DNA of 64,000 bases from Acidobacteriota bacterium (GTDB lineage Bacteria > Acidobacteriota > UBA890 > WLXD01). The stretch spans positions 1,504,001 to 1,568,000 of the forward strand of contig CBDBHB010000009.1 of the NCBI GenBank assembly GCA_965205505.1, written 5' to 3'. A model generated the notes under the pieces. It did no database searches. It was not told the origin of the DNA and saw only the letters and a program-made list of their open reading frames with translations. The position numbers were made by a program, and so were the translations under genes. Positions 7,285 through 28,788 of the stretch are shown here, one piece after another (position 1 is the first letter of the stretch; each line of letters begins with the position of its first letter).

Positions 7285-7465
7285 CTAGCAGGCCGTGGTG
7301 AAAGTGTGGTGGGTCTGGTAACCCTTCGGGCGACAGGGGGTTGCGCGCGTATGCTGCGTCGTTCCTCGTCAACGATGGGGTAACCATCGCCTCCTCCTCT
7401 CTCCTTGCCTGCACTTCGCAAGACCCTGTCGCCAGACCCACCACACTTTCACCACGGCCTGCTAG
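7285..7465. mobile_element. MITE-like element, family A, short (181 bp) form
   Basis: Perfect ~34 bp terminal inverted repeats CTAGCAGGCCGTGGTGAAAGTGTGGTGGGTCTGG / CCAGACCCACCACACTTTCACCACGGCCTGCTAG, CTAG at both ends, near-identical inverted copy at 10614-10892. Confidence 0.85.
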
Positions 7466-7610
7466 CCCGCTGGAGGCGCGAAAGCGCGTGTCGACGCTGG
7501 GCACGACTCCGGGGAGCGACTGGGTCGGCGGGTCGACAGGGGACTCCTCTCATCGTAGCGCGCCGAGGGTGGTGGTTGCACGGACGCCGCCGGTCTGCGA
7601 GCTTCCGACC

Positions 7611-8792
7611 ATGACTACACCCTGGTGGGCACGTGACGGACTCGACGTTCGCGATGGTCGCATGTCGATCGCGGGTCAAGATGTGGAGGCGTTGGCACGT
7701 GCCCACGGCACGCCACTGTACGTGTACGACAGCTCCCGCATGGAGGCCAACCTGCGCCGGCTGCAGCGTGCGCTCGACGCCGCCGGCGTGCGTCATCATC
7801 TGCTCTACGCGCTCAAGTGCAATCGCCATCCGGACATCGTTGCCGGAATGCACGGCACCGGCGTGGGCGTCGATGTCTGCTCGCCGAACGAGATGGACAT
7901 GGCGTTGGCGGCCGGCTGGACGGCGGGAGAGATCTCGTACACCGGGACGAACCTCAGCTCGAGCGACCTGGAACGGATTCTTGCCCATCCGTTGGTCTTG
8001 AACCTCGACTCGCTGAGCGCCATCCGACACGTCGGCGCGCGGGCCGCTGGCAGGACGATTGGCCTGCGGCTCAACCCGGGAGTGGGAGCCTACTCGACGC
8101 GCACGACCACGGCGGGCAGCTGGCCGTCCAAGTTCGGTATCTACCCGGAGCAGCTGGACGAGGCGCTGGCGATCGCGGCCTCCCACCGGCTGCAGGTGGG
8201 AGGGCTGCATTTTCACATCGGCTCGGGCTGGCTCCAGGACATGCTCGGCGATTTCCGCCGCGCGGTTCAGGTGGTCAGTGACGTCGCTGCTCGGCTCACG
8301 GACCTCGAGTACATCAACGTCGGCGGCGGTATTGGCGTCCCGCTGCTGGCATCCTCGGTTCGCGTCGATCTCGATGCGTACGCAGCCCTGATCGCGGCGA
8401 GCTTTGGGCCACTCGGCGTGACCGTAATGTGCGAGCCCGGCGACTTCCTGGCGCGCGATGCCGGCGTGTTCTTGGTAGAAGTGGTGGGGGTGGACGAGCG
8501 CCGCGGCACGAAGTTCGTCGGTGTCGACGGGGGATACAACGCCTGTGGCATTCCGCATCTGTATCGCGAGCCCCAGGAGATCGTGCTTTGTCGAGCCGCC
8601 GACGCTGCCGCAAGCGAGACCTACACGGTCGCGGGCCACATCAACGAGGCCCGTGACGTGTTCGCCGACGACTCGCCGCTGCCGGAAGTTCAGGAGGGCG
8701 ACATCCTGGCGCTGCTGAACGTCGGCGGCTACGGGGCCGAGCTCGCTACCATCCATTGTGGCCGCCCGCACGCGGAACGGCTCGTACTCTAA
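7611..8792 (+). CDS. Diaminopimelate decarboxylase-like group IV PLP decarboxylase with an atypical active site
   Basis: HGTPLYVYD, YALKCN (PLP lysine), SKFG, HFHIGS, NVGGG and EPG motifs. The usual GPLCE motif reads GHINE. Confidence 0.8.
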   Translation: MTTPWWARDGLDVRDGRMSIAGQDVEALARAHGTPLYVYDSSRMEANLRRLQRALDAAGVRHHLLYALKCNRHPDIVAGMHGTGVGVDVCSPNEMDMALAAGWTAGEISYTGTNLSSSDLERILAHPLVLNLDSLSAIRHVGARAAGRTIGLRLNPGVGAYSTRTTTAGSWPSKFGIYPEQLDEALAIAASHRLQVGGLHFHIGSGWLQDMLGDFRRAVQVVSDVAARLTDLEYINVGGGIGVPLLASSVRVDLDAYAALIAASFGPLGVTVMCEPGDFLARDAGVFLVEVVGVDERRGTKFVGVDGGYNACGIPHLYREPQEIVLCRAADAAASETYTVAGHINEARDVFADDSPLPEVQEGDILALLNVGGYGAELATIHCGRPHAERLVL

Positions 8793-8900
8793 CCAAGGCC
8801 GGCTAGTCATTGTGCTCGCGCGCCAGTGCAACACCCCTTCGGATTCCTGACTCAGTACACTATCGACGCTCACGTTCGAGATCCGATAGCGAGATAGACC

Positions 8901-9449
8901 GTGCGAACGAATCATCGACGTAGGACAGCAGCACTGGTGCTCCTTCTGCCGCTCGCAGCAGGGGCTAGCTCCGCCGTGCACGAGCGCAAGGAAGTCGCCG
9001 GGATGATGGTGGTTTTCGGTGCCGAGCCTGAGCCAGCGATCACCGGGGAGAGGCAGGAGCTCGTCCCCGGTCCAGCTGCGCCCCTCGCGGGCAACGCGGC
9101 AACCGAAGTGATCGAAGCCTTCCACGCCGCGGTAGCCGTCGGCGACGGCGATCAGGCCCTGGCGTACCTGGCACCCGAGGTGGTCATTTTCGAGTCTGGC
9201 AACGCCGAGATGTCACGCGATGAATACGCATCTCACCATCTCGGCGGCGACATGCGCTTCGCCGGCGCGACCCAACGCGAGACCATCGACCAGCGCTACG
9301 AGATCGTCGGCGACATGGCGTTCGTGCTCACGCAGTCACGCACGACCGGAAGCTTCAGCGGTCGTCAGATCGACTCGACCGGTGTGGAGACCATGGTGCT
9401 GCGTCGTGTAGGAGGTCGTTGGCTCATCGTCCACATCCACTGGTCCTAG
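8901..9449 (+). CDS. Secreted NTF2/SnoaL-like (DUF4440-type) protein, possibly with a chimeric N-terminus
   Basis: Signal peptide; C-terminal VIEAFHAA...FESG...EYASHHL...ETMVLRR...WLIVHIHWS is typical of NTF2-like folds. Confidence 0.7.
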   Translation: MRTNHRRRTAALVLLLPLAAGASSAVHERKEVAGMMVVFGAEPEPAITGERQELVPGPAAPLAGNAATEVIEAFHAAVAVGDGDQALAYLAPEVVIFESGNAEMSRDEYASHHLGGDMRFAGATQRETIDQRYEIVGDMAFVLTQSRTTGSFSGRQIDSTGVETMVLRRVGGRWLIVHIHWS

Positions 9450-9501
9450 CGGAGCAACCAGCGGTAGAGCAGATCCCAAGTTCTGGGCACCGTAAGGTTG
9501 G

Positions 9502-10303
9502 CTACTGGACCGAGGTAGACCCTACCTGAAACCACTCCGAGGGTATGCGCAGCTTTCGTGCCTCGGCGCGAAGCGAGCGCTGGAGAGATTGCCAAGCCCG
9601 GAGCTCGCGGGAGGAGCCAGATCCCCTCTCGAGCTTGTCGATGCGGTCGCGCAGCCACAACGCCTGTTCCTCCCAGTAAACCCGGGTGGCAGGGTCCGGA
9701 CGGGACCAGTCGACCATTCCTGGTTGTGTTCTGGGCAGTTTGGGCAGTGTTCTTGGCCGCGCGCGGATCGCAGCCCGATTGCGGCGCCCGATCGTTGGTT
9801 GCACCGCATAGGAGCGTGCCCGCGTCGTCGTCGCCACCGTTGAACGCCGCGGCTCCGTTGGCGCCAGGGAGGACTCCGCCACAGGTGGCTCCGTGGTCGC
9901 CGTTGCTCGACGCGCCGTCCTCGGGGCTGCCGGCGCAGACTCACCGCGGGAGAGAGTCGGGGCGGCGGCGGACACGCTCGGTTCGACTGCCGAAGGTGCC
10001 GACAGTGGAGCGATCGGCTCCGGCTCGACCACCGAGGGCGCGGGCAGCGGCACGCTCAGCTCCGGTTCGACGCCCGCAGGGGCCACCGGCGTTGCGCTGG
10101 TGTCGGCGTCAAGACGGACGCGCTCGACGAAATCGGCTGACAACCGAACCACCACGCCGTGCACGACGAACAGCACGGCACCGTTCTCGACCCGTGCTCC
10201 CTCGACCTCCAGGGTGCGTCCGTTCTTCAGCCAAATCGTGTCGGCACTCGCCGGCGTTGGCAGCGATACCGAGGGCGATGAGCGCCGGCAGGAATGCACG
10301 CAT
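9502..10303 (-). CDS. Hypothetical secreted Pro/Ala/Thr-rich protein with a +1 frameshift near 10258
   Basis: Signal peptide MRAFLPALIALGIAA in one frame joins TPASADTIWLKNGRTLEV in another when one C is removed. Confidence 0.6.
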
Positions 10304-10389
10304 GACGCTACCTTGCATCGACGTCCGCGGTGCGTCCAGAGGGTCGGCTGACTTGACCCCCGAGTTGGCAAACGGGACGAGGAAGCGTC

Positions 10390-10518
10390 ATGGGTTCGAT
10401 CGCCAGCTACCGCGGGACAGATCGGGTGACCGTCGCCGGCTTGGAGGACATCTCGACGCTGTCCAACCTGGTGGCCGGGCTGCGCGGCCGAGGAGGGTGC
10501 CCGGTGTCAGCGACGTGA
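10390..10518 (+). pseudogene. Remnant resembling the C-terminus of an M19 membrane dipeptidase
   Basis: Translation contains AGLEDISTLSNLVAGLRGRG, similar to the GLEDVSKLPNLVAELLRRG motif. Only 42 aa. Confidence 0.45.
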
Positions 10519-10613
10519 TCAGTGCACAGGTACCCGCTCCGTGAGCTCCTTGGAACCAACTCAGAACGAGGTGGATGCGATCGAGCTCACCTGGTCACCT
10601 GGCCCCCGTGGGG

Positions 10614-10892
10614 CTAGCAGGCCGTGGTGAAAGTGTGGTGGGTCTGGCGACAGGGTCTTGCGAAGTGCAGGCAAGGAGAGAGGAGGAGGCGATGGTTACC
10701 GCATCGTTGACGAGGAACGACGCAGCATACGCGCGCAACCCCCTGTCGCCCGAAGGGTTACGGCGATTTGGGGCCATCTGCAGCGTTGCCCTTCCTCGAC
10801 GATGGCTAGGGCATCGCCTGTGTCAGGCCGCCTTGCATCTGGCCCCAACTCGCCGTAACCAGACCCACTACACTTTCACCATGGCCTGCTAG
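10614..10892. mobile_element. MITE-like element, family A, long (279 bp) form
   Basis: Same TIRs as 7285-7465 in opposite orientation, plus an extra 98 bp hairpin (10761-10858). CTAG at both ends. Confidence 0.85.
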
Positions 10893-10947
10893 GTCGCGGT
10901 TGACGGACCCTCGCCGACTGCGAAGCTCCGGTGCGCGCTAGCGCGCT

Positions 10948-11727
10948 TCAAATGCCCACCAGGTTGGGGCGAAGCTTGCGGTAGCCCTGTTCGCTGGCCC
11001 ACAGATCCAGCGGCAGGGCGACGATCTCGTCGACATCGGCGACGGCGCGCGGATCGGCCACCAGGCTGACGACGTGCAGGTAACGGTTGCAGCTCTCGCA
11101 GGCGCGAACCTGAAGCTGTGCGAGGTCGTCGGTTCCGTACCACGCCAGCCGGCCGTCGTCGGCTTGACTACACGCTGGGCAGCGGACACGAGGGAACGTC
11201 CATTCCGCCAGGCACAGCGAACAGATAAGGCTCAGGGCGGTGCCGTCGCTGCTGGTGCGCAAGCAGCCGACCTGCGGGGCCTGACCGCACCTCGGACAGG
11301 TGTCGACGGAGACGCCGGGGTTGGCGTCGCGGTGCTTGCAACCTGCCGCACCGACGGCTGCCGCCGGGCCCAGCAGCACGCGCGCGAAAAAGCTGCGCGG
11401 CGACTCGATATCGTCGCCGCGCCGGTGCGCCTCGAAGGCGAGCTCGCATTCCGCGGCGTCGAAGCGTCGGGCGGCGTGGCGCAATGGAGCGGGCGCGATC
11501 TGCGCGATCAGCTCCACCAGATCGGACCGGGATTCCGCCGGCGCCGCTGCCGAGACCCGCGCTTGGAATGCGGCGATGTCGGCGTAGAACTCCAGCGCCT
11601 GGCGCGCCGCCGGGTGGGACTCGGCAAGCGCCCGGGCACGGGCCTCGCGGCGCACGCAGAGGGAGCCGAAGTCCGGTTGCTCTGGTGGCGGCGCGGTCAG
11701 CGGAATGTCACTCTGTGGCGGCGGCAC
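10948..11727 (-). CDS. fdhE: Formate dehydrogenase accessory protein FdhE
   Basis: CPRCG, CSLCLAEW, CPAC and CESC Cys pairs; ends DLWASEQGYRKLRPNL; last gene of the fdn operon. Confidence 0.9.
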   Translation of the reverse strand: MPPPQSDIPLTAPPPEQPDFGSLCVRREARARALAESHPAARQALEFYADIAAFQARVSAAAPAESRSDLVELIAQIAPAPLRHAARRFDAAECELAFEAHRRGDDIESPRSFFARVLLGPAAAVGAAGCKHRDANPGVSVDTCPRCGQAPQVGCLRTSSDGTALSLICSLCLAEWTFPRVRCPACSQADDGRLAWYGTDDLAQLQVRACESCNRYLHVVSLVADPRAVADVDEIVALPLDLWASEQGYRKLRPNLVGI

Positions 11728-11752
11728 GCTGCTTTCGATGTCGGCAGCGCGC

Positions 11753-12379
11753 TCAGCGCCCGGAGATCTTGGCGTACCACTTGGCGTGATGCGAGGCCGC
11801 CCAGTCGGCGCTCACCCAGCCGCGAGTCATGGCGCGGAGGGAGCCAGGGATCGCCGCCACCGCCATGTAGATGTGGACGATGATGCCGCCGATGGCGACG
11901 ATCGCGGCGAGCGGGTGGATCAGCAGGGCAGCGAACGTCAGGCCGCGCGGTGCCGTTCCCGGAAACCACATCACCAGGCCGCTGGTCAGCAACGCAACAG
12001 CCGCCAGCGACTGCGCCCAGAACAGCATCTTCTGCCCGCCGTGGAAGCGGCCCGACTCGGGCATTCCGGCAGCGTCGTTCATGGCGTAGCGATGCGACTG
12101 CCGCAGCCACCTGCGGTCGTCGGCATCGACGCGCATCTGTCGCGCCCAACTCACGAACATCAGGCCGAGCACCGCGGCGAACAGGAGACCGCCCCATGGG
12201 TGCCCCCAGCGCGTCACCTCGCCGCCGCCGAATACCGTCGCCAGCCACAGCAGCTTCGGGCTCCAGAGCGATAGCCCGGTCGCTGTGGCATAGGCGAAGC
12301 TGCCAGCAACTAACCAGTGAACGGCCCGCTCGCGGAACGAGAAACGCTCGATGTGGTCGTGCTGGCGCGGCACGCTCAC
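11753..12379 (-). CDS. fdnI: Formate dehydrogenase-N cytochrome b (gamma) subunit
   Basis: RFSFRERAVHW, GRFHGGQK, HIYMA and WAASHHAKW motifs. GTG start overlaps the fdnH stop. Confidence 0.9.
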   Translation of the reverse strand: MSVPRQHDHIERFSFRERAVHWLVAGSFAYATATGLSLWSPKLLWLATVFGGGEVTRWGHPWGGLLFAAVLGLMFVSWARQMRVDADDRRWLRQSHRYAMNDAAGMPESGRFHGGQKMLFWAQSLAAVALLTSGLVMWFPGTAPRGLTFAALLIHPLAAIVAIGGIIVHIYMAVAAIPGSLRAMTRGWVSADWAASHHAKWYAKISGR

Positions 12380-13175
12380 GCCTCGCCACCGTGCTCTTGG
12401 CCGAGAGGGCCGACGCGCAAGTAGTGCAGCAGCACCCCCAGCAGGCCGCCGAAGAAGACCAGATTGCCCAGCCACTTCACCGGACCCTTCCACAGCTTCA
12501 CCGTCCAGTGCACGGTGGGGTTCGCCGGCAGCCCGTAGATCTGCGGCTGCGAGGCGTCCTTGAGCACGTACAGTACGTTGGTGCCACCGACGCCGAGCGG
12601 GTTGTAGACGCCGGCGCTCTGGTGACCGGCGCCGCGAAGATCCTCGGCACGGTTCTCGGCTACTTGCAGAAGGTCGTCGCGAGTACCGAAGGTGAGGCAG
12701 CTCGTCGGACAAGCCTTGACGCATGCGGGCTCCAGGCCCACCGATGTGCTGGTCGGAGCACAGCGTGCACTTGTAGGACCTTCTGCGTAACCGGCGACAG
12801 GCGAGGGATGTCGAACGGGCAGCCGGCGATGCAATAGCCACAGCCGATGCACAGGTTGTGGTCGAAATCGACGATGCCGTTGTCGTGCCGGAAGATCGCC
12901 CCCGGGACGGGGCAAACGTCCATGCACCCAGGTTCTACACAGTGCATGCACTGGTACTTGGAGAAGATCCAGTCGAGGCTGTTGTCCTCGTGCTCGATCT
13001 CTTTGAACTTGATCAGGTTCCAGAAGTCGTGGCGCACTTCGGGCATCGTTTGATAGGTGCCGTCGAATGTACCGTAGGTGGTTCCCTGGTCGTTCCATTG
13101 CTGACAGGCGGCCTCGCAGGCCTTGCAGCCGATGCAAGTGGTGGTGTCGATCAGCTTGGCGACGATCTCGGCCAT
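12376..13175 (-). CDS. fdnH: Formate dehydrogenase-N iron-sulfur (beta) subunit, with two +1 frameshifts near 12780 and 12750
   Basis: CIGCKACEAAC, CMHCVEPGC, CIGCGYCIAGCPF, KCTLC and EPACVKACP spread over three frames; C-terminal TM anchor. Removing two single bases restores KVYKCTLCSDRTSVGLEPAC. Confidence 0.88.
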
Positions 13176-13179
13176 GAGC

Positions 13180-16100
13180 TCAGAGCTTCTCCAGATTCAC
13201 CAGGAACCCTTTGTACTCGGGCGTACCGGAGTTGGGGTCGAGCACCGAGGGCGTCAGGTTGTTCACCAATGGCCCGCGCACCCGGCCGACGAAGCCCCAG
13301 TGGATCGGAATCCCCACCTGGTAGACGGGCCGCTCAGCCACCTGCAGGGCGCGCAACCGCTTGGTCACCATTGCCGGGCCCTCGACCCTGCCGCGCGCCG
13401 CCGTGACGGCGACGCGATCGCCGCTGGTAATACCCTTCTCGCGCGCTAGCCCCTCGGGCACCTCGACGAAGAACTCCGACTGCAGCTGCGAGTTGGCGGC
13501 CACGTGCTTGGTCCAGTAGTGGTAGTGCTCGGTGAGCCTGAAGGTCACCGCCACATAGGGGTACTCGTCGGCGCTGCCCAGCGGGTCGAGCTCGCCATCC
13601 ATGATGATTGCCATCGGGTTGGCGTTGACTGTCGGGTGCAGCAGATTGTCGACGGGCGATTCCACCGGCTCGTAGTGCTCCGGGAACGGTCCCTCGACGA
13701 AGTCCGGCGCGAACAGCTTCGCCACACCTTCGGCGAGCATGATGAACGAGCCGTACTGTTCGGGTGGTGCGGTCGCCGCGTAGTCGGCAACGTCACCGAG
13801 ATAGCGGCCTTGGTCCCAGCGGATCGGCGCGCGCGTTGCGTCCCACGGCCGCCCGTTGGCGTCGGCCGAGGCGCGGTTATAGAGCACGCGGCGATTGGCG
13901 GGCCAACTCCAGGCGTAGTCGGCGAACAGACCCAGCCCGGTCGGATCTTCCTGGCCGTGCCGATCCATCATGTTGCCGTCCTCGTTGAAGGAGCCCGAGT
14001 ACAGCCAGTTGCCGCAGAGTGTCGATCCGTCGGCGCGCAGCTCGCCGAAGCCGGCCACCTGGCGGGCATCACCTATCGACCGGCCGCTGATTTCTTTGGC
14101 CACCTCGGTCAGCGACGGCGACACCGCGTTGCCGTAGTCCCAGGCGATGTTCAGCAGCGGATCCGGCGCCGTGCCGCCCTCCTGCCGGTACAGCTCGCGC
14201 AGCTTCAGGAACAGCCGGGCGATGATCTCCTGGTCGTTCATGGCGTCGCCCGGCGGCGGCAGGGCAGCGTCTTTCCATTGCAGCCAGCGCGATGAGTTCA
14301 CGAAGGTGCCGTCCTTCTCCGCAAAGCAGCCGGCCGGCAGCAGGAAGACCTCGGTGTCGATGTCGGCCGGGTCCAGCGCGCCCGGGTAGTACTCGCCGGC
14401 GAGCTCCTGTGCCTTCCAGAACGCCGCCGTCTCGGTCTCGAAGTTCTCGACCACGATCATCCACTCGAGCTTGCCGAGCGCGTCGATCATCTTCGGGGTG
14501 TTGGGGCCGTTGGCCACCGGGTTCATACCGAACGTGATCAGCCCTTCCATCTCGCCCTTCGACATGCGGTCGAAGATCTGCCCCCAGCTGTGGTCGGCGT
14601 TCTCGTCGAGCTTCGGCAGCCAGTCGTAGCCGAAGTCGTTCGAGGCCTCGGCGTTGGCTCCGTAGTAGGCCTTGAGCAAGCTGGCCATGAAGCGCGGCGT
14701 GCTGCCCCAGTAGTTCATCGAGTTCGGACGCAGCGCTCGCGGCGAGTTGGCGGCGTTGTACTCGGCCAGCGACGTCCACTGCGCCCGTGGGACCTTCAGA
14801 TAGCCCGGCAACATGTTCCAGGCGCCCATATCGGTGGCGCCCTGGATGTTGGAGTGGCCGCGCTGGGCGTTGACCCCACCGCCGGGCATGCCGACGTTGC
14901 CAAGCAATAGCTGCAACATCGCGGCACAGTGGATCAGCTGCACCGAATGGCTGTGCTGGGTCCAGCCAAGCGCGTACAGGATCGTGCCGGAGCGGCCCGC
15001 ACGGCCGGACGAGGTGATCACCTCGGCGGCGCGCTCGAACTCCTCGGCGGTGCAGCCGCTGATCGATGCGACGACGTCGGAGGTGTAGCGCGAGTAGTGG
15101 CGCGCCATGAGCTGGAACACACAGCGCGGATGCTGCAGCGTGGGATCGACGCGGGCGTGGCCGCGGGAGTCGAGCTCGTAGCTCCAGGTCGACTTGTCGT
15201 AGGCCTTGCGTTCCGCGTCCCAGCCCGAGAAGTGCCCGTCCTCGAAACCGAAGCCGTCCTGGATCAGGAACGCGGCATTGGTGTGCTGTGCGACGTACTC
15301 TCGGTGGTAGCGATCGTTGCTCAGCGCGTAGTTGATTAGCCCGCCGAGGAAGGCGATGTCGCTGCCGGCGCGGATGGCGACGTACTCATCGGAGACCGCC
15401 GCCGTGCGGTTGAAGCGCGGGTCGATGCATACCAGCTTGGCGTTGCGGTTCTTCTTGGCCTGCATGACGAAGCGGAATCCCACCGGATGGTTCTCGGCCG
15501 GGTTGCCCCCCATGACTAAAATCACATCGGCGTTGGCGACGTCCGTCCAGCCGTTGGTCATTGCCCCGCGACCGAACGTGGCGGCCAGACTGGCCACCGT
15601 GGGGCCGTGTCATAAACGTGCCTGGTTCTCGTACGGCAGGATCCCGAGGCCGAAGCGCAGCTTGCCGAGCAGGTAGTTGACCTCGTTGGTGTCGGTACAG
15701 CCGCCGATCAGCGCCAGGTTGGTGAGGCGGTTTACCGTACGGCCCTGCGCGTCGCGCTCCTCGAACCCGGCGTCACGTGTGTCCTTGATGCGGCGCGCCA
15801 TGCGATCGAGAGCCTCGTCCCATGAGATGGGCTCGAAATCCGTCCCCCCGGGGGCGCGGTACAGGGGTCGTTCCAGCCTGCGGTCATTGTTGACATAGTC
15901 CTTCAGGCTGATGCCCTTCGGGCAAAGCGTGCCGCGGTTGATCGGGCTGTCGGGATCGCCCTCGATGTGTACCACCGTTGGCTTCACGTTGTCGGCACGA
16001 TCGCCGAGCGTGTGGATGACGACGCTGCAGCCGACGGCGCAATAGGGGCAAATGCTGTGGGTCTGTGTGGTGCGCGCGATCTTGAGCTGGCGGACCGCGG

Positions 16101-17052: not shown

Positions 17053-17826
17053 ATGGCCGTGTCGCCTGTCGGTGCGCTACGTTACCCACTCAGCCTCGGG
17101 CGCCGTTGTCTGCTTTCGGCTTCGCTGGCTGCCGGCCTGGTGGCCAGCTCTTTGTCCGTCCCGGCTGCGTCGCAAGAGGGGACAACGGTGCACGACGCGG
17201 TGTTCAGCAGCGCGCAAGTCGAACGCGGCCAGGTCAGCTACGAGACCCACTGCGCCTCCTGTCACGGCGCCGATCTCGGGGGCGACAGCGCCGGCGCTCT
17301 TGTCGGAGAGGACTTTCTGCGTAGCTGGACCGGCCTGTCGCTCAGCGGGCTGTTCGAGTTCGTCCAGGCCATGCCTCCAGAAGCCGCGTCGAGCCTCGGC
17401 GACCAGACCTATCTGGACATCCTCAGCCACATCCTCCACACCAACGGGTTTCCGACCGGAGCGGAGGACCTGCGTACCGACGTCCTGGCGGCGGTGCTGC
17501 TGCAGGGCACCGAAGGCCCTCAGGAAGTACCCGACTACTCGCTGGTGCAGGTGGTCGGTTGTCTGACCCGAGGATCCGACGACGCATGGATCGTGACTCA
17601 AGCGAGCGTCCCGATCCGCACCCGGAACCCCGCGGCATCGACCGGCGGCGCGCTGCTGGGCGCGAGTTCGGTGGCCCGCGGCTCGGCGTCCTTCGAGCTG
17701 TTGAACGTGTTTCCGCGCCCGGACGATCTGCAAGGACGCCGCGTCGAGGTGAAGGGCTTTCTTATCCGCGGCGATCGGGACGCGCTCAACGTCACGGCAT
17801 TGTCGAGTTTGTCAGCACCCTGCTAG
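17053..17826 (+). CDS. Periplasmic monoheme cytochrome c with a C-terminal VVGCL-type domain
   Basis: Signal peptide, CASCH heme motif, distal MPP. Stop codon lies in the CTAG of the adjacent MITE. Confidence 0.85.
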   Translation: MAVSPVGALRYPLSLGRRCLLSASLAAGLVASSLSVPAASQEGTTVHDAVFSSAQVERGQVSYETHCASCHGADLGGDSAGALVGEDFLRSWTGLSLSGLFEFVQAMPPEAASSLGDQTYLDILSHILHTNGFPTGAEDLRTDVLAAVLLQGTEGPQEVPDYSLVQVVGCLTRGSDDAWIVTQASVPIRTRNPAASTGGALLGASSVARGSASFELLNVFPRPDDLQGRRVEVKGFLIRGDRDALNVTALSSLSAPC

Positions 17827-18007
17827 TGGCCTGTAACAGATGATCGTTGCATTTCGCCGCCATCCTACGGACAGATGGGCAGTTGCGGGCGATATCGGCG
17901 TTGCGCCTCGTCGACGATGCCCACCGCATCGACATCCTAGCCGCGCCTTGATCTCACCCGCAAATCCCATCTGCGATATGCAACGATCATCTGTTACAGG
18001 CCACTAG
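17823..18007. mobile_element. MITE-like element, family B, short (185 bp) form
   Basis: 30 bp TIRs CTAGTGGCCTGTAACAGATGATCGTTGCAT / ATGCAACGATCATCTGTTACAGGCCACTAG; related ends at 28510-28788. Confidence 0.85.
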
Positions 18008-19524: not shown

Positions 19525-19546
19525 GTCACACCCGAATATCGAGCCA

Positions 19547-20893
19547 TCACAGGCTCATCGGCGCGAGCACTTCGCCCGCCCGGCCGGTGCTGTCGACGAA
19601 GCTGTCCAGGTGCACCCCGACGTGATCCAGCAGCGCCAGGTGCAAGTTTGCCAGCGGCATGGCCTCGTCGTACTTGATATGCCACCCACCCTTGACCTGC
19701 CCGGCGCCGCCGCGGGCAACTACGATCGGCAGGTTGGTGTGGTCGTGCACATCCGGGTTGCCCATCCCGCTCCCCAGCAGATAGGTCGTGTGGTCGAGCA
19801 GCGTGCCGTCGCCATCCGGGGTCGACCGCAACCTCTCGAGCAGATACCCGAAGAGCGAGACGTGATGTGCGTTGATCTTGGCCAGCTTGGCCAGCTTGAC
19901 GGGGTCGTTGACGTGATGAGACACGGGATGATGGGGCTCCGGCACGCCGATTTGCGCGTAAGTTCTCGTGCTGCCCTCGCGCGCCAGCTGAAACGTGATA
20001 ATCCGGGTCATGTCGGCCTGCAGTGCCAGCACCTGCAGATCGAACATCAGCTTGACGTGCTCCTCCCACGACTCGGGCACGCTGGCGGGACGATCGAGGC
20101 CCGGAAGCGGCGTCGAGTCGGCATGTTGCTCGGCCCGCTGGATGCGGCGCTCGACCTCGCGCACCGTATCGAGGTACTCGTCGACCTTGGCACGATCTCC
20201 ACCCCCGAGCTTCGCCTGCAGCCGGATCATGTCGTTCATCACCCAGTCGAGGATGCTGGCGTTTGTCTTCATCTGTGCCTGGCGCTGCTCGAGCGTGCCG
20301 CCGTCACCGAACAATCGCTCGAAGACGGCGCGCGGGTCGGATTCCGGCGGCAGCGGCGTCGTTGGTGACGACCACGACAAGCTGTTCATGTAGACGCAGG
20401 CGTAGCCGTTGTCGCAGTTGCCAACCTGCGCAATCAGATCGGTGCCCAGCTCGAGCGAGGGAATCGGCGTCGCCCCGCCGATCTGCGCTGCCGCGATCTG
20501 GTCGACGGTCGTGCCCAGCTGGTAGTCGCTACCTTCGGTGCGCTTGCCCCCGGTACAGCTCAGGAACGCAGCATTGGACGACGCGTGATTTCCGGTCGTG
20601 TAGGCGTTGCGCAGCTCCGTGTTGGTGACCACGGTCAGGTGATCGAGGTAGGGGGTGAGCGAAGCCAAAGACGGTGACAGCTCGGTGATGGCGCCCTCTC
20701 CCTTGGGAATCCACGGCAGTGGGTTCATTCCCATCGGGATGAACACATATCCGAGCCGCCGCACGGGGTTCGCCGCGGTTCCGACCTGTGCGGACAGCGC
20801 CGGCACCATGGCGTCCAACAGGGGAAGCGCCAGAGTGGCGCCGACACCGCGCAGGAACGTGCGGCGCGGCAAGGCCATTTTGGTGACGATCAT
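19547..20893 (-). CDS. DUF1552 family protein with a Tat-like signal
   Basis: LPRRTFLRGVGATLALPLLDAM, TTVDQIAA, SLELG, HHPVSHH and HDHTNLP motifs. Confidence 0.85.
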   Translation of the reverse strand: MIVTKMALPRRTFLRGVGATLALPLLDAMVPALSAQVGTAANPVRRLGYVFIPMGMNPLPWIPKGEGAITELSPSLASLTPYLDHLTVVTNTELRNAYTTGNHASSNAAFLSCTGGKRTEGSDYQLGTTVDQIAAAQIGGATPIPSLELGTDLIAQVGNCDNGYACVYMNSLSWSSPTTPLPPESDPRAVFERLFGDGGTLEQRQAQMKTNASILDWVMNDMIRLQAKLGGGDRAKVDEYLDTVREVERRIQRAEQHADSTPLPGLDRPASVPESWEEHVKLMFDLQVLALQADMTRIITFQLAREGSTRTYAQIGVPEPHHPVSHHVNDPVKLAKLAKINAHHVSLFGYLLERLRSTPDGDGTLLDHTTYLLGSGMGNPDVHDHTNLPIVVARGGAGQVKGGWHIKYDEAMPLANLHLALLDHVGVHLDSFVDSTGRAGEVLAPMSL

Positions 20894-23284
20894 TGCGACC
20901 TCCGCATCTGAAACGGACGACTCTTTGTGATGGCGAGCACGAGCGACGAGAAACGATAGTCGTTTTGTGCCGCGTTTCGCACGATGGCGCGCACGGCTGG
21001 GGCATCGTGGTAGTCGACGCCACGGCCCAGGGCGAACGTAAGCAACTTTTCCGTCATCGTACCGACGAACACCTGCGGCCGGGCCAGGATCGCCGAGCGC
21101 AGTCCCGCTACGCCCTCGAAAGTCGCACCGCCGGGGAGGCTCCCCGACACGTCGATCGACGTGCGGTTCTCGCCGAGATCGCGCCATCGTCCAACGGCGT
21201 CGAAGTTCTCCATCGCCAGGCCGGCCGGGTCCATCAGCTGGTGACAGGCGGCGCACACCGGATTGGCGCGGTGCTCGACCATGCGTTCGCGCATCGACAA
21301 GGCCCTGCGGCCCGGTTCAGTCTCCGGTAACGGCGGCACCGTCGTGGGCGGCGGCGGCGGTGGCATCCCGAGGATGTTGCTGAGGACCCACTTTCCACGC
21401 AGCACGGGTGAGGTGCGCGTCGCGTACGAGGTCACCGTCAGGATGCTGCCGTGCCCCAGCAGTCCGGCCCGCTCGCTTTCCTCGGACAGCTGCACCCGTC
21501 GAAAATGGTCGCCGTAGATGTGCGGCATTCCGTAGTGTCTGGCGACACGCTCGTTGACATAAGTGTAGTCGGCGGTCAGCAGATCGACGACGTTGCGGTC
21601 TTCGCGGACGATGCTGTCGAACAAGAGCTCTGTCTCGCGACGAAATCCCTGGCGCAGGTTGTCGTCGAAGTCGGGAAACAACCGCAAATTAGGCCGGGCG
21701 GCATCCAAGTTTCGCAAGTGCAGCCACTGCCCGGCGAAGTTGGTGCTCAGCGACTCGGCCCGCGGGTCCATCAGCATCCGGCGAACCTGAGACTCGAGCA
21801 CATCCGGTTTCCCGAGCTCGCCGCGCCTGGCGACGGCCAGTAGCTCGTCGTCCGGAATGCTGCTCCAGAGAAAGAAGGACAGGCGCGTTGCCAGCTCCAG
21901 ATCGCTGAGCAGATACGCCTCGCCCGAGGCGACATGGTCGGCGTCTCGCTCGATACGGAACAGGAACTCGGTGCTCGACAGCAGCGCCCTGAGCGCTGTC
22001 TCGATCCCGGCCTCGAAGCTCCCCGTCGCGCGGGCGTTCCGATAGAACGAGAGCAATGCGGCGCTGTCAGCGTCGGTCACGGGGCGCCGATACGCACGTC
22101 GGGCCAACTTCGAAATGATCGTGCGCGCGCACGCTTGTTCGTCGTCCGCTGAGGCGCTGGCCGGCTGGCACACGAAGATCCGCTCACGGCTCGGCGTGGC
22201 GCCTGAGCCGGCGGCTTCGAACGGACCGGCGACGGCGACCGAGTGCACCCCCGGTTGCGTCCTGGGATGCCGGTCCATGTTGAAGTGAGCGTGGTAGGGC
22301 TGTCGCTCGGTTTCGATGAGTGCGGAGTTCTTCTTGATGAACGTCGCCGTAACAAACATGCGGGCCGGCCTCGACCGGCACTCGAGTCACCAGATCCTTG
22401 TCGACATCCACGTCGGAGTAGTAGTCGCCGAAGTTATTTCGATTCGGCGTGATCGTGAAGAGCTGGAGCCGCTCGCCGTCCAGGGCGAGCTCCATGACGT
22501 GGGGCTCCGTCAAGCCTTCGACGTTCTCGTTGCGGTTGCGCGAAAGTCGGACCCGGAGCTCGTATTCACCCTCGAGGGGAAAGTTGTAGCTGACGGCGGT
22601 GCCGCCGCGCGTGCCGAACGGCAGCCCGTCGAAGTGGTCTTCCTGTGTGAGATCGGCGGGGAGGACCACGACATGACTCCCCGGAGCCAGCAAGGCACTG
22701 CCGACGGCCGCCCGACTGACCTTCTGTGCGGCCGACAGATACCGATCCATCAGCATCGGCGAGAGACCGACGGCGCCGACGTTGTCGAACCCGTAGCTGG
22801 CGTCGTCGCGCGGCAGCAGCGCGGTCACGTCCACATCGAGCGCCAGCAGATCTCGCACCGCGTTCTGATACTCCGTCCGGTTGAGCCGGCGAAATGTGTC
22901 GGTACGGCCAGGGTCCGGGTTGCTGGTCGCAACGCGGTCGAGCTCGGTCTCCAGATACGCCAGCAGGTCTTCGTAGCTGGCCTCATCGGGCCGGGCGATC
23001 CGGGCCGGTGGCATGGCCCGAGCATTCAGCTTCCTGACGACCTTCTCCCAGACCTCGACGCGCTCGTCGATGCGGTCGAGCTTGACGGTATCGAGGGCAA
23101 GTCCGCCCGCCAGGGTTTGCTCGTTGTGACAGCTGGAGCAATAGGTCTCGACGAGTGCCGATTGCACCGAGACGTTCGGCGCGGCTTGCGCTGGGGTCGC
23201 CCGCGCACCATTGGGTGGCCAATAGACAACCGACAGCCCAATGGCCGCGCCCACCAGTACTCGTCTCGTGGTACGCACCGTCAT
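20890..23284 (-). CDS. DUF1592/PSD-domain (planctomycete-type) cytochrome c protein, +1 frameshift near 22357
   Basis: CSSCH, RRLNRTEYQNAVRDLL, ELATRLSFFLWSSIPD, TSPVLRGKWVL and CAACH; split over two frames by one extra T. Confidence 0.85.
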
Positions 23285-23385
23285 ATCTGCACCTCCCGGC
23301 TTCCCCGGATGACGCGGATTATACGGCAGACACAGCCTTGCAACACAGTGGAGATGGGGCGGCGTCGCGCTGGTCTCGGAGGCGG

Positions 23386-24726
23386 TTACCGGGATGGGAA
23401 CAGCGCCCGGTTCAGGATCGACTCGAAGAGCTCTTGCTTGGCGCTACGAGTCTCCGGCGCGGCGTTCGTGGATGCGATCTCATAGAGGTCGACGAACTCC
23501 AACTCACCGGATTCGAAAGCAGCCCCGGGAGCGGAGCGGAAGCTTGCGTAGCGTTCGTCGCGCAATCGCAGATAATCCGACTCCTCGAGGATGCTTGCCG
23601 CAACCAGCAGGGCACTTGCAAAGGTATCCATACCGGTAATGTGGGCGATGAACAGGTCATCCGCGTCGGTCGAGTTGCGGCGCAGCTTGGCGTCGAAATT
23701 GACTCCGCCGGTTCCGAGCCCGCCGGCTTGGAGCAATACGAGCATCGCCTCGGTAGTTTCGTATAGATCCACCGGGAACTGGTCGGTGTCCCAGCCGCTC
23801 TGGTAGTCGCCGCGGTTGGCGTCGATGCTGCCGAGAAGACCGGCATCAGCGGCCACCTGGAGCTCGTGCTGGAAGGTATGGCCGGCGAGCGTCGCGTGGT
23901 TGACTTCGATGTTGAGCTTGAAGTCATCGAGCAGGTCGAACTCGCGCAAGAAACCGACCGCGGTTGCGGCATCGTAGTCGTACTGGTGCTTCATCGGCTC
24001 CTGCGGCTTCGGCTCGATCAGGAAGACGCCGTCGAAGCCGTGGCTACGCGCGTAGTCGCGGGCGGCGTGCAGAAAGCGCGCCAGGTGCTCGCGCTCGCGC
24101 TGCATATCGGTGTTGAGCAGGCTCATATAGCCTTCTCGCCCGCCCCAGAACACGTAGTTGCTGCCGCCTAGAGCAATGGTGGCATCGAGCGCGCACTTCA
24201 CCTGGGCGGCGGCGTGGGCGACGACTGCGAAATCGGGGTTGGTGGCGGCGCCGTTCATATAGCGCGGGTGCGAGAACAGGTTGGCGGTACCCCAAAGCAG
24301 CTGCACGCCGGAGGCACGTTGCTTCTCGGCCGCATACTCGACGGCTGCTCGCAGGCGACGCTCGGACTCGCCAACGGAGTCGCCCTCGGCGACCAGGTCG
24401 ACGTCGTGGAAGCAGTAGAACGGCACCCCGAGCTTGGTGATGAACTCGAACGCTGCATCCATCTTCAACCGCGCCGCGGCGAGCGGATCGGGCTCCGTCG
24501 ACCAGGGGAACTCACGTGTCGGCGCGCCGAACGGGTCGCCGCCCCCAACGCCGAAGCTGTGCCAGTAGGCAACCGCGAAGCGCAGGTGCTCAGCGAGCGT
24601 CTTGCCGGCCACGGTGCGACCGGAGTCATAGGTCTTGAAAGCAAGCGGGTTGCGGGAGTCTGGTCCTTCGAACGCGATCTCCCCGACCTGCGGATAGAAC
24701 TCGTGGTCTCCGATCGTTACGGGCAT
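23386..24726 (-). CDS. xylA: Xylose isomerase (class II)
   Basis: [38 protein letters not shown] and GWDTDQF motifs. Confidence 0.95.
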
Positions 24727-26237
24727 TTCGGTTGCTCCTGCACGTCGTGGCCGGCGAGCGCCCCTTCAAGGTGACGGCACCATCGATCATAGGCGGCGGC
24801 GTATTCCGAGCGCAGTAGATCGTCGGGCTCCACGAGGGCGCTCGCGATGAGGCCGGTGAATGCATCCGCGGTGGTCTCGTAGACCCCGGCACCGAGGCCG
24901 GCGCCGCGCGCCGCTCCCTGCGCTCCATCGGTCTCGTATAGCTCGATCGTTGCGCCGGTTGTGGTTGCCAGCGCCTGCCGGAAGATCGGGCTGGCGAACA
25001 TGTTGCCCGATCCGGCACGGATTACTCGCGGCTCGATTCCGGTGCCGCGCAGGACGTCCAGCCCGTAGCGGAAGGCGAAGGCGATGCCCTCCTGTGCGGC
25101 GCGCAAAAGGTGGGACTTCTGGTGCCGATTGAACCTCAGTCCGTGGATCTGACACCCGAGGTCCCGATTCTCGAGTAGTCGTTCCGCACCGTTTCCGAAG
25201 GGGAGAACGGCCACCCCGTCGCTGCCAACAGGCACCTGCCCGGCAGCGGTGTTCATGGCGTGGTAGTCAGTTCCCGAGGAGCACACTTGTCGCCGAAGCC
25301 AGGCGTTGAGAATGCCGGCGCCGTTGATGCACAGCAGCACACCGAGCCGCGGTGCGCTGCTTTCGTGGTTCAGGTGGGCGAATGTGTTCACCCGCCAGCG
25401 CGCGTCCGGCTGAGCAACGTCGCTGACGCCGTAAACTACCCCCGACGTGCCAGCGGTGGCGGCGATCTCACCCGGCTCGAATACGTCGAGCGACAGCGCG
25501 TTGTTGGGCTGGTCGCCGGCGCGATAGCTGACCGGGACTCCAGCCTCCAGCCCGAGCTCGGAGGCGGCAGCTCTTGTCAGGCTGCCTTGGGCACCAAACG
25601 TGGGGACTACATCCGGCAGCAGCGAATCGTCGAGCTCGAAATGGCGGAGCAGGGGCGACGAGATCTGGTCGTTGACGAAATCCCACAGGATGCCTTCCGA
25701 CAGGCCCGACACGGTGGTGGAAATGGCACCGGTCATGCGCATCGCGATCCAGTCGCCCGGTAGCATCATCTTGTAGACGCGGGCGAATATATCTGGCTCG
25801 TACGCCTTCACCCAGGCGAGCTTGGAGGCGGTGAAGTTGCCTGGCGAGTTCAGCAGATAACGCTGGCAATAGTCGAATCCGAGCGACTCGAGGGCGTCCT
25901 CGCCAAGCGTTACGGCGCGGCTGTCGCACCAAATGATTGCCGGCCGCAGGACCGCGCCTTGCTCGTCGACCAGGACGAGCCCATGCATCTGGTAGGCGAT
26001 GCCGATGGCACCGACATGGTCGGCCCGTACGGCCGCCCCTTCGAGCACCGCAGCCGTGGCGCGCACCAGGTGGCGCCACCAAAGCTCCGGATGCTGTTCC
26101 GCGTACCCGGGCCGCGTCGCGTCGATCGCCATCTCGTCGGCTGGCGATGATGCCGATGCGACACAGGCGCCGGTGTCGGCTTCAAGGAGGGCCGCTTTGA
26201 CCGACGAGCTTCCGACGTCGTATCCGAGGAGGTACAT
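24717..26237 (-). CDS. xylB: Xylulokinase (FGGY family)
   Basis: [24 protein letters not shown] and AGDQPNNA motifs; overlaps the xylA start. Confidence 0.9.
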
Positions 26238-26244
26238 CGGTCGG

Positions 26245-27450
26245 CTACGAGACCGCGCCGTAGTCCACGTCGATCTGTCGGCGTGAGGCGGCTGATGACA
26301 GCACGGCGTCACACACCACGGCGGCGCGATAACCGTCCACGAAGGTCGCCCCGTGGGGCGTGACATCGCGATCGTTGGCGATGCAGTCGAGCAGGTGAGC
26401 GAACTCGTGTACGAACGTGTGCTCCCAACCGATGATGTGTCCGTGAGGCCACCAGTGTTCCCAGAACGGGTGGTGTGCTTCGGTTACCAGTACATCGTGG
26501 AAGCCCTGCGTCTCGCGAGGCTCGTCGTCGACCCAGAACACCTGGAGCTCGTTGAGGCGTTCGAGGTTGAAGCAGATGCTGCCAAGCTCGCCGTTGATCT
26601 CTACGACCTGGTGATTCTTGCGGCCGGCCGCAAAGCGCGACGATTCGAGCGTTCCCAGAGCTCCGTTGGCGAATTCCACGGTGGCAACGAAGGCATCGTC
26701 GACGTCGACCTTGGCGTTGCCGGAGCCATCCGGCAAGGGCCTTTCGTCGATGAACGTGCGCGTCGCGGCGCCGACGCTGGCAATGTCGCCCACCAGGTAG
26801 TGCGCCAAGTCGATGATGTGCGCGCCCAGGTCGCCCAGTGCTCCGCTACCGGCGTGCTCCTTGTCGAGTCGCCAGATTCTCGGCGTGCCGTAGTGCGGCA
26901 GGATCCACTCCTGAAGGTAGACCGCACGATAGTGGTAGATACGGCCCAGCGCGCCGCTCTCGATCAGCTGGCGAGCCTGGCGTATGGCGGGCACGAAACG
27001 GTAGTTGAACGCCACCATGTGTTTGACGCCCGCGTCGCGTACCGCCGCCAGCATTGTCGCAGCCTCTTCCACGTTGCGGGCCAGGGGTTTTTCGCAGATC
27101 ACGTGCTTGCCGGCAGCGGCGGCGGCGATGCAGGGCTCGGCATGGACGTCGTTGGGTCCACCGTTGTCGAACAATTGCACGCGCTCGTCGTCGATGAGGT
27201 CGCGCCAGTCCGTGTAGTGCCTCGCGTAGCCGTAACGTCGCGCTGCTTCGGCGACGGCGCCCGCGTCGCGGCCGCAGATCGCTACCAACTCGGGTATCGC
27301 CGGTGGCGGGTAGATCATGTAGGGGAGCGTCTTGAGCGCGTTCGAGTGCGCCTTTCCCATGAAGGAGTAGCCGAGCACACCGACACCTATGCTGGGTACG
27401 TCGAGATCGGTCGTTGCCGCCGCCATGTCGGTGAAGGACTGCTCACCCAT
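26245..27450 (-). CDS. Gfo/Idh/MocA family NAD-dependent sugar oxidoreductase
   Basis: GYSFMGKAH, CEKPLA and GALGDLGAHIID motifs. Confidence 0.9.
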   Translation of the reverse strand: MGEQSFTDMAAATTDLDVPSIGVGVLGYSFMGKAHSNALKTLPYMIYPPPAIPELVAICGRDAGAVAEAARRYGYARHYTDWRDLIDDERVQLFDNGGPNDVHAEPCIAAAAAGKHVICEKPLARNVEEAATMLAAVRDAGVKHMVAFNYRFVPAIRQARQLIESGALGRIYHYRAVYLQEWILPHYGTPRIWRLDKEHAGSGALGDLGAHIIDLAHYLVGDIASVGAATRTFIDERPLPDGSGNAKVDVDDAFVATVEFANGALGTLESSRFAAGRKNHQVVEINGELGSICFNLERLNELQVFWVDDEPRETQGFHDVLVTEAHHPFWEHWWPHGHIIGWEHTFVHEFAHLLDCIANDRDVTPHGATFVDGYRAAVVCDAVLSSAASRRQIDVDYGAVS

Positions 27451-27480
27451 CCTTGTGCTCCCTACCTAGGGTAAACCGCA

Positions 27481-28479
27481 TCAGTCGTCGGCGAACGCCG
27501 CGTCGAACGCCACATCCGAGGGTGCGAAGTCCTGGTCGCGAACCATCTGTAGCGCCTCTTGCGCACCCCATTCCCGATCCATGCCGCTGTCTTCCCACTC
27601 GATCGACAAGGGACCGTTGTAGCCGATGCGGTTGAGCGCTCGTACGATTGGATCCCACTCTACGTCGCCACGCCCAGGAGACACGAAATCCCAACCCCGC
27701 CGAGGGTCACCGAAGTCCAAGTGTGACGACAGGATGCTGTTGCGTCCGTCCAACTGCAGCCGAGCGTCCTTCACATGGACGTGGAAGATACGGTCGGGAA
27801 ACTCCTCGATGAAGGTCACCGGCTCGATGAACTGGTGAACCAGATGGCTAGGATCGAAGTTGAACCCGAAGCTGGGGTGGTTGTCGATCGCGTCCAGCGC
27901 GCGCCGCGCCGTGATGGTGTCGTAGGCGATCTCGGTCGGGTGCACCTCGAGCGCGTAGCGCACCCCTTGTTCGGCGAATACACCGAGGACGGGCTGCCAA
28001 CGCTCGGCGAAATCGCTGTATCCAGCGTCGATATCGCCCTGGGTCGTGGGTGGGAAGAAGTAGAGCTTGGACCACACGCTACTGCCGGTGAATCCGTTGA
28101 CCACGTCGACACCGAACCGTCGCGCCGCCCGTGCTGTGTCGGCGATCTCCGCGGCGGCACGTTGCCGGACCCCCTCGGGCTCACCGTCTCCCCAGATACG
28201 GGGCGGCAAGATCCCACGGTGCCGTTCGTCGATCGGATCACACACGCACTGGCCTACCAAGTGGGTGCTGATGGCCGAGCACGACAGTCCGTGGCGCTCG
28301 AGTAGCTCCCGCTTGGCGTCGACGTAGGCGTCGTCGCTGAGCGCCTGGTCAACCTCGAAATGATCACCCCAGCAAGCCAGCTCGAGCCCATCGAAGCCCC
28401 ATTCGGCAGCCTTCGCAGCCAATGTCACCAAAGGCAGGTCAGCCCACTGGCCGGTGAACAGGGTGATCGCTCGTGACAT
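27481..28479 (-). CDS. Sugar phosphate isomerase/epimerase-like TIM barrel (IolE/AP endonuclease 2 family)
   Basis: [41 protein letters not shown] and SIEWED motifs. Confidence 0.88.
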
Positions 28480-28509
28480 CGAGAATCTCCTTTGTGGTGC
28501 CTAGGACGC

Positions 28510-28788
28510 CTAGTGCCCTGTAACAGAGGTTCGTTGCATATTGCTGGGTCGAGATGGGGGCAAGCTCAAGGCGCGATGAGGATGGCGATGCGGTGTCCAT
28601 CGTCGACGAATCGCAACGCTGAGATTGCCCCCATATCGACCCAGCCCTCCGGGTGGCCGCGGGACTGGCCACCTCCGGCGTCGGCTCTCCTCTGCGATAC
28701 GCTCAGCATCGCCGTCGTCGTGCCTCCTTGGATTCAGCTCAGTCGCGCGCGCCACAATATGCAACGAACCTCTGTTACAGGACACTAG
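28510..28788. mobile_element. MITE-like element, family B, long (279 bp) form
   Basis: TIRs CTAGTGCCCTGTAACAGAGGTTCGTTGCATATTG / CAATATGCAACGAACCTCTGTTACAGGACACTAG (1 mismatch); two internal cores; CTAG at both ends. Confidence 0.85.

Follow-up and report, generated by a model that had tools for sequence, protein, structure and literature searches.

A candidate strand-specific structured module at the tip of TA-inserting miniature elements in Acidobacteriota and other bacteria

Four short, non-autonomous mobile elements lie within a 64,000-nt stretch of an Acidobacteriota genome (contig CBDBHB010000009.1, positions 1504001-1568000; hereafter the window). The genome (G000) comprises 5.98 Mb with 64% G+C and is 96% complete. 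All four are miniature transposable elements with inverted repeats (MITEs), and together they contain six copies of a core of 52-53 nt with the pattern GCGTYG-N11-CGATR-N7-CATCG-N13/14-CCTTG. This core is a candidate strand-specific structured motif with significant covariation in one of its helices, termed P1. The same core was found at the tip of TA-inserting hairpin elements in several phyla, and the elements have otherwise neither ends nor arms in common.

Four hairpin elements in the window

Each of the four elements is bounded by CTAG and has terminal inverted repeats (TIRs) with arms of 34-35 nt and complementarity of 97-100%. Elements and TIRs were found where an earlier note on this sequence had placed them, and so were the six cores with their strands. 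All six match the pattern exactly, as compared with 0.00 matches in 100 dinucleotide-preserving shuffles. Both spacer segments, N11 and N13/14, are indeed variable and pyrimidine-rich on the strand considered in that note. In the following list, this strand (GCGTYG..CCTTG) is called the reader's strand and its complement (CAAGG..CRACGC) the sense strand, blastn matches are called near-full-length if they cover at least 90% of the element, and MFE stands for the minimum free energy of the folded module.

7285..7465: A-type single-module MITE, 181 bp; TIRs 7285-7318 and 7432-7465 (34 nt, 100% complementary), CTAG at both ends; 11 near-full-length blastn matches in the genome
7356..7407, plus (reader's strand): 52-nt core of subfamily 0, which has 64 copies in the genome; its sense strand, which folds better, is minus (MFE -46.1, reader's strand -44.6)
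10614..10892: A-type two-module MITE, 279 bp; TIRs 10614-10647 and 10859-10892; 52 near-full-length blastn matches in the genome, 49 full copies aligned
10672..10723, minus: core copy of subfamily 0; sense strand is plus
10761..10855: inner hairpin module holding the second core, with its own short inverted ends (CGGCG../..CGCCG) adjoining TA on both sides
10783..10835, plus: core copy of subfamily 1, 53 nt
17823..18007: B-type single-module MITE, 185 bp; TIRs 17823-17857 and 17973-18007, of a type resembling IS630 ends
17898..17950, plus: core copy of subfamily 2; sense strand is minus (MFE -56.9, reader's strand -49.1)
28510..28788: B-type two-module MITE, 279 bp; TIRs 28510-28543 and 28755-28788; 41 near-full-length blastn matches in the genome, C-type elements among them
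28567..28619, minus: core copy of the subfamily 2 group, b2 variant; sense strand is plus
28678..28730, plus: core copy of subfamily 5

The 279-bp A form resembles the 181-bp A form with an additional 95-nt mini-element whose own inverted ends adjoin TA. By comparison of the two forms, the inner module at 10761..10855 looks like a mini-MITE nested in an element of the shorter kind, with the reservation that the empty site of the 95-nt module is off by one base. The difference between the two A forms is also the sole hint within the window of a TA target-site duplication at filled and empty sites. Five separate 90-nt elements resembling this inner module, with flanks TTAC/GTAA, are present in the genome.

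Copies in the genome and constraint on the core

The exact pattern occurs 129 times in the genome. When up to three substitutions were allowed, 259 copies were obtained as compared with a single one in the reversed-genome control. These copies fall into 17 clusters, nine of which have at least six members (64, 48, 37, 33, 25, 20, 10, 8 and 6). Judged from consensus flanks, the at least nine core subfamilies are carried by five or more TIR types (A, A', B, B' and C). Of the 175 groups into which the cores were sorted, 93 are single, 81 double and one quadruple, and the order in all two-module architectures listed is (-,+), such that the same core orientation is encountered inward from either TIR. 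A TIR pair was found for 106 of the 175 groups, with CTAG on both sides in 64 of those 106; in most of the remaining pairs an inner TA had been chosen by the script.

Types A, B and the others have one modular architecture in common and are members of one MITE superfamily. The previous description of A and B as two unrelated MITE families is therefore too strong, and the TIRs of type B in addition match IS630 ends (see below). The genome is also very rich in insertion sequences (IS): self-comparison revealed families of about 31, 21, 19, 13 and 10 copies. It also showed several duplications of multi-kb blocks at contig ends.

The earlier note proposed that the core rather than the TIR is the selected unit, and alignment of the 49 full copies of the 279-bp A form supports this in that the core is the most constrained part. 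Variants common to at least two copies are rarest in the four boxes, at 0.74 per position, as compared with 1.50 for the TIRs and 3.25 for the rest of the element.

Secondary structure and covariation

The 163 unique cores collected were reduced to 48 cluster representatives, and covariation was scored on an alignment of 45 diverse sequences. Helix P1 is formed by the first four nucleotides of N11, which pair with the four nucleotides preceding the last two of N13/14, together with a pair between G6 and an invariant C. Watson-Crick pairs are present at the five positions in 47, 38, 33, 27 and 38 of the 48 representatives, with CG, GC, AU and UA all occurring, and four of the five pairs vary on both sides in the alignment. 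The covariation score of P1 was 0.264 as compared with 0.092 +/- 0.014 in shuffles, none of 500 shuffles reached this value, and partners slid against each other scored at most 0.143. Covariation in P1 is hence significant in the alignment of 45 sequences. In the six window copies, the earlier note had ascribed covariation to the different complementary stems closing the cores. These flanks do pair, yet the clearest covariation lies inside the core, in P1. Changes in this helix are also seen within the genome: P1 of the core at 10783..10835 reads GCCC/AGGC with one C-A mismatch while the consensus of subfamily 1 is GCCT/AGGC, and P1 of subfamily 5 alternates between GGCTC/GAGCC and GGCCC/GGGCC within the genome. 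In some lineages (L108, L056) N11 and N13 pair over their whole length.

A second helix, P2 (CGATG/CATCG), is formed by an inverted repeat that hardly varies and whose spacing is fixed. A covariance model built from 45 sequences (R1) yielded 98 matches, 27 of which lie outside the search pattern. Among them are the compensatory P2 variants CAATG/CATTG and CGATA/TATCG, and locus L048 has a different stem in place of P2. The 5' box is included in 25 of these 27 matches, and 17 of the 25 retain GCGTYG.

The unpaired remainder of the two 'variable' segments is conserved across TIR types, approximately as TCSTCGA and CCTSCKTC on the reader's strand. Since the same loops accompany different TIRs, they cannot encode TIR or target specificity. 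The comparison with a two-sided variable loop of the IS110 bridge-RNA kind, which the earlier note had offered as a speculation, is not sustained, as the segment ends pair with each other in P1 and the rest is conserved; judged from this pattern, the loops are not programmable guides. Read on the sense strand, the internal loop is built of the oppositions A.G, G.A, A.A and G.G, placed between Watson-Crick or G.U pairs. Purine-purine internal loops of this kind are common in folded RNAs.

Comparison with Rfam gave no relevant family for the core: the window at the gathering threshold returned SECIS_3 alone, and 12 loci of other phyla had no relevant match at E <=0.1. The SECIS_3 match itself, at positions 15557-15615 of the window on the minus strand, has 69.8 bits and is above the gathering score; a selenoprotein gene would be expected there.

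Strand asymmetry

The two strands of the elements differ in their capacity to fold. Of 42 representatives folded as RNA with 55-nt flanks included, 41 give the lower energy for the strand that reads 5'-CAAGG..CGAUG..CAUCG..CRACGC-3'; this set includes a locus without hairpin context (L093, from a Paenarthrobacter record) that was treated as a chance match and excluded from the alignment of 45. On average the strands differ by -13.95 kcal/mol (Wilcoxon p = 3.4e-8), and two elements may serve as examples (-57.0 vs -32.5 and -78.8 vs -58.3). Because the core itself supplies part of this difference, mismatches were also counted in the 55-nt arms outside the core alone, in the same 42 representatives. 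Transition mismatches there are G.U on the CAAGG strand in 170 cases vs 52 on the other strand (p = 8e-16), and by cluster 37 of 42 lean toward the CAAGG strand, with three opposite and two ties. As the arms are unrelated to each other and the elements occur in either genomic orientation, the arm bias must be tied to the orientation of the core. This pattern suggests that the element spends a selected part of its time as a single strand of defined polarity. Together with the covariation in P1, the two asymmetries indicate that the core behaves as a folded single strand.

A duplex-DNA site would be a different explanation. According to it, CGATG-N7-CATCG would be a dimer site at which a host architectural protein or the transposase bends the short element, and the pairing would be a by-product of palindrome maintenance. 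The near-invariance and fixed spacing of the P2 inverted repeat, the central and MITE-specific position of the core and its orientation-independence would all fit. Nevertheless, we consider this explanation improbable, since it accounts neither for covariation of P1 with free sequence, nor for the compensatory variants of P2, nor for the strong strand asymmetry of the arm mismatches.

Distribution among related genomes and phyla

The exact pattern was detected in 17 of 41 related genomes, as opposed to none in any of them for the backwards-pattern control. By family, it is present in 7 of 10 genomes of one family and 9 of 15 of a second, and in none of 15 single genomes of other families. Model R1 has matches in 38 of 151 Acidobacteriota genomes, a count that takes in the genome studied here and one unpublished genome (G072).

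When one genome per species was scanned, at least 96 core loci were obtained. Forty of them were viewed in context, and in all except L093 the core is placed at the tip of TA/CTAG-bounded inverted repeats. The viewed loci belong to records of seven phyla (Actinomycetota, Bacillota, Bacteroidota, Pseudomonadota, Myxococcota, Elusimicrobia and Acidobacteriota), and nine phyla are reached by record label; phyla were assigned from record titles, and labels of metagenome-assembled genomes may be wrong. Among the Actinomycetota the core is carried by records of Kribbella, Streptomyces, Leucobacter and Streptosporangiales, and among the Alphaproteobacteria by Sphingomonadales, Kiloniellales, Rhodospirillales and Aureimonas. 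Records labelled Gemmatimonadota and Brocadiaceae also match, by label and without a view of their context. Conservation of the core across TIR families and phyla is thus observed. The arms of the elements are unrelated between groups and AT-rich in the records of Bacteroides, Lachnospiraceae and Eubacteriaceae; the core module remains GC-rich even in such AT-rich hosts. In one Eubacteriaceae genome, the genome's own TIR is matched 34 times in forward and 33 times in reverse orientation.

Two insertions, L026/L087 and L038/L083/L074 (Kribbella and a Streptomyces-labelled record), are shared with the same flanks across several species and end 2-4 nt upstream of a start codon. These old, fixed copies may have been co-opted.

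Relation to IS630 and search for a mobilizer

In agreement with the earlier note, no transposase was found in the window by the comparisons made: the six DDE_3 matches of the genome and all its DDE_Tnp_1 matches are located outside, and self-comparison of the genome revealed no multi-copy element of at least 600 bp inside. Elsewhere, the genome contains two IS630-family elements that are bounded by CTAG and measure 1190 and 1145 bp. The larger of them, IS_a, has DDE_3 and helix-turn-helix (HTH) domains and ends that resemble TIRs B' and B. IS630 elements are likewise CTAG-bounded in the relatives G004, G007, G013 and G020, and about 28 of 33 positions are the same between TIR B2 and the right end of the one in G007 (manual count). 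Hence, of the autonomous elements with the same ends that had been proposed as a follow-up, candidates were found for type B, and no matching IS was found for TIRs of types A and C. The elements have the traits of IS630-type MITEs, namely TIRs within TA/CTAG, no internal transposase and, for B and B' only, IS630-like TIRs.

Autonomous elements with the same core were sought without success: none of 19 IS630 loci (nine from this order, ten from plasmids of five phyla) holds the core inside the IS. The only strong core matches among them, in L133, are outside the IS boundaries. The note had named inheritance of the core from a described IS or MITE as an outcome that would undo its proposal. The MITE families are indeed related, and the core was inherited within the MITE superfamily; with the core in 0 of 19 IS630 loci, it was not inherited from a described IS. 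Among relatives, presence of the core and of IS630 is uncoupled: 40 exact cores occur in G003, which lacks any DDE_3 match, and G007 has 43 DDE_3 matches, one exact core and more cores with a 6-nt loop. Two-module MITEs adjoin IS630 ends at a shared CTAG, in either orientation, at L132, L134 and L138 (G007) and at L133 (G013). Such abutment would be expected if every insertion recreates its target.

Other parents were considered and rejected. An IS5/IS1182-like parent was dismissed as the only PF01609 match has no TIR A nearby, and the three pairs of TIR A that are 1.3-4.8 kb apart all enclose ordinary genes. No transposase adjoins the ten solo TIRs of the Eubacteriaceae genome, and blastn of a sphingomonad element against plasmids gave no match.

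Several coding readings of the core failed: (i) the forward frame has stops in subfamilies 1 and 4, and stops are found altogether in subfamilies 1, 4 and 7; (ii) the 13/14 indel shifts the frame before CCTTG, and the boxes are invariant at every codon position; (iii) the reverse frame and a mini-ORF (open reading frame) starting at the ATG fail too, and of 268 frames that start at this ATG 79 stop within 10 codons and none is transposase-like; (iv) the ATG is lost in the P2 variants L015 and L048. These results also bear on the idea that the core descends, as a relic, from an IS630 clade's 5' leader, in which a Shine-Dalgarno-like purine run and ATG would be held in a fold-back hairpin and conserved via autonomous parents. 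On the CAAGG strand a GGAGG-like run does precede an ATG inside P2 in many families, and this ATG in type A and the start codon of IS_a are both 79 nt away from the end of their element. Besides the failed frames, the lost ATG and the 19 IS630 loci devoid of an internal core, the G.U bias argues against such a relic, as it extends along the arms of the entire MITE hairpin, a structure out of reach for a 1.1-kb IS. An origin as leader relic is thus highly improbable, and the core is neither coding nor a piece of a transposase gene or leader.

The most abundant IS of the genome is an IS110-family element (DEDD_Tnp_IS110 and Transposase_20 domains, 348 aa), present outside the window in about 31 copies (C8:403802-405239, C9:1190199-1191915 and about 29 more). 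In 19 of 19 probe matches its left end comes after the terminal bases of a B-type MITE TIR, which ends in ..AGGCCACT in 18 of them and in ..AGGTCACT in one, and its right end is followed by AG and varied flanks. Because the left end is found at the last bases of a B-type TIR in all 19, this IS110 element targets the MITE TIR terminus.

Possible roles of the core

The model that we tentatively prefer, with somewhat less than even confidence, is that the core is a strand-specific, single-stranded apical module, likely of RNA, which acts in cis in a widespread superfamily of IS630-moved MITEs. Hairpin MITEs would insert at TA, preferably inside CTAG, and be moved by IS630-family DDE transposases. 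An element consists of a TIR pair, complementary arms and the module at the tip, and the acidobacterial 279-bp forms have two such hairpins. The presumed functional strand reads 5'-CAAGG - M - P1 - purine-rich internal loop - CGAUG(C) - variable loop - (G)CAUCG - purine-rich loop - P1' - R - ACGC-3'. The RNA would be made when transcription enters the element in the right direction, for which two-module elements would be competent from either side. Once the element is transcribed, the module might bind, for example, the transposase or a universal host factor, leading to mobilization in trans and proliferation.

Several observations weigh against this model. Abundant C-type elements carry altered boxes (CCTAC in 33 copies, GCGTCA and GGATG in 25). 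All four boxes, P2 included, were fixed by the search pattern, which makes their invariance across phyla partly circular. The representative clusters behind the strand comparisons are not fully independent of one another, and in the window itself five of six modules favour the sense strand by just 1 to 8 kcal/mol. At the base of P1 (columns 4/47, 0-based; core position 5 and the second-to-last one before CCTTG) the Y of GCGTYG is correlated with the base in front of CCTTG without complementarity, T with G in 29 of 48 and C with T in 15 of 48 representatives, and these T.G and C.T oppositions favour the reader's strand. Neither a sigma-70-like promoter nor an intrinsic terminator was found in the two elements scanned. 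Orientation to neighbouring genes is unbiased, with 11 tandem neighbours in the same and 9 in the opposite direction (94 loci, 56 of them unusable, crude gene calls); likewise, 4 vs 3 were counted among 16 elements of the Eubacteriaceae genome. Finally, G041 contains six coreless 64-bp elements (L178-L183) at separate loci which consist of two TIRs only and whose deletions end at identical points, at an 11-nt direct repeat. Such elements may be mobile without the core or products of recurrent deletion, and the core may thus be dispensable.

Four sequencing runs labelled as RNA, two of them by guess, yielded contigs that cover just the MITE part of the window region 10300-11200, with flanks from other copies. 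Such contigs reveal neither transcription nor strand nor ends, the libraries possibly contain DNA, and no inference is drawn from them.

The even gene orientation argues against a role of the core in host transcripts and points to no source for a strand-specific RNA. It bears directly on the suggestion that the core serves the host as an RNA element in 3' or 5' untranslated regions, having arrived by insertion at stop codons, with functions in mRNA stability or processing, Rho loading or ribosome standby. Singleton substitutions in the 279-bp A form are mildly depleted in the boxes (7 vs 14.9 expected, p = 0.013) and not in the TIRs (25 vs 24.1), and orthologous insertions are retained directly upstream of start codons in several Kribbella records; both findings would be in line with a host function. 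Against it stand, in addition to the missing orientation bias, copy numbers of up to hundreds and the occurrence of the same module across phyla amid unrelated gene contexts, and we regard such a function as rather improbable. The constraint pattern combined with the even orientation fits better with a cis-acting role in proliferation.

Alternatively, the strand-specific structure might be one of single-stranded DNA: a hairpin extruded from one strand, on the lagging-strand template or in a cruciform, could be an architectural or timing signal for synapsis and cutting by the IS630 transposase. The same covariation and strand asymmetry would come from a DNA hairpin tolerant of G.T. Moreover, the absence of a recognizable promoter and of gene-orientation bias would pose no difficulty, constraint on the boxes acts at the level of the lineages that proliferate, and two-module elements show one module in the right sense on either strand. 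With respect to replication, no strong bias was seen (91 sense-on-leading vs 111 sense-on-lagging; 29:18 for family 0 and 10:24 for family 1), which speaks against this alternative. In one element (L038), as many as 12 of the 68 pairs predicted are G.U, a number that is easy for RNA and costly for DNA, and it is for this reason that the RNA form is put forward in the preferred model. We also know of no single-stranded step in the transposition of Tc1/mariner/IS630 elements. ISY100, a member of the IS630 family, is reported to require no more than its transposase and to bind duplex TIRs (PMC2170065). On balance, a DNA hairpin is a serious rival though on the unlikely side.

Returning to the preferred RNA model, one may go further and propose that a structured RNA or single-stranded DNA module, absent from the IS themselves, lets transposase-less MITEs capture a transposase or host factor in trans; this extension is speculative and, in our estimation, unlikely. 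If true, it would imply a nucleic-acid-assisted step in the mobilization of non-autonomous cut-and-paste transposons. MITEs are usually viewed as TIRs around junk. The retention of one 52-nt module at the tip of TA-inserting MITEs that share neither ends nor arms makes directly testable the long-standing question of what, beyond its ends, renders a non-autonomous transposon successful, and it adds a very widespread candidate structured motif for which Rfam has no match.

Comparison with known systems

No description of the core was found in the literature searched in full text.

Rickettsia palindromic elements are dispersed palindromic repeats, too. They insert in-frame within genes, whereas the elements described here are CTAG-ended and intergenic. 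The IS110 bridge RNA is also a hairpin with internal loops tied to mobile DNA, and the genome holds an IS110-family element. In contrast to bridge RNAs, the cores are located in MITEs and not beside IS110 genes, their variable segments pair mutually, and their loops are independent of the TIR. REP/BIME sequences moved by RAYT proteins (Y1 HUH) share with the present elements a conserved short flank plus imperfect hairpin, strand specificity and frequent arrangement as inverted pairs. They differ in that the present elements have long TIRs and TA/CTAG flanks, and Y1_Tnp (PF01797) has no match in the 96% complete genome.

Correia (NEMIS) and ERIC elements are TA-inserting MITEs whose hairpin transcripts affect RNA processing, with effects that may depend on orientation. 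They are similar to the elements studied here in being palindromic MITEs for which a hairpin at the RNA level matters. Correia/NEMIS and ERIC are clade-restricted, and to our knowledge a conserved core that spans phyla has not been described in either; comparison by sequence and with Rfam showed no relation to the present core.

The nearest counterparts are MITEs mobilized by IS630-family elements, such as RUP of Streptococcus pneumoniae, an IS630/Tc1-mariner-mobilized MITE that is attributed to IS630-Spn1. Both groups are short, non-coding, TIR-bounded and present in many copies, with TA inside CTAG, and the TIRs of the present elements resemble IS630-family ends of the same clade. Compared with RUP-type MITEs as generally described, the present elements are set apart by the absence of their core from the IS630 elements searched, by unrelated TIRs and arms, and by a pan-phylum apical module of 52-53 nt with covariation and strand asymmetry.

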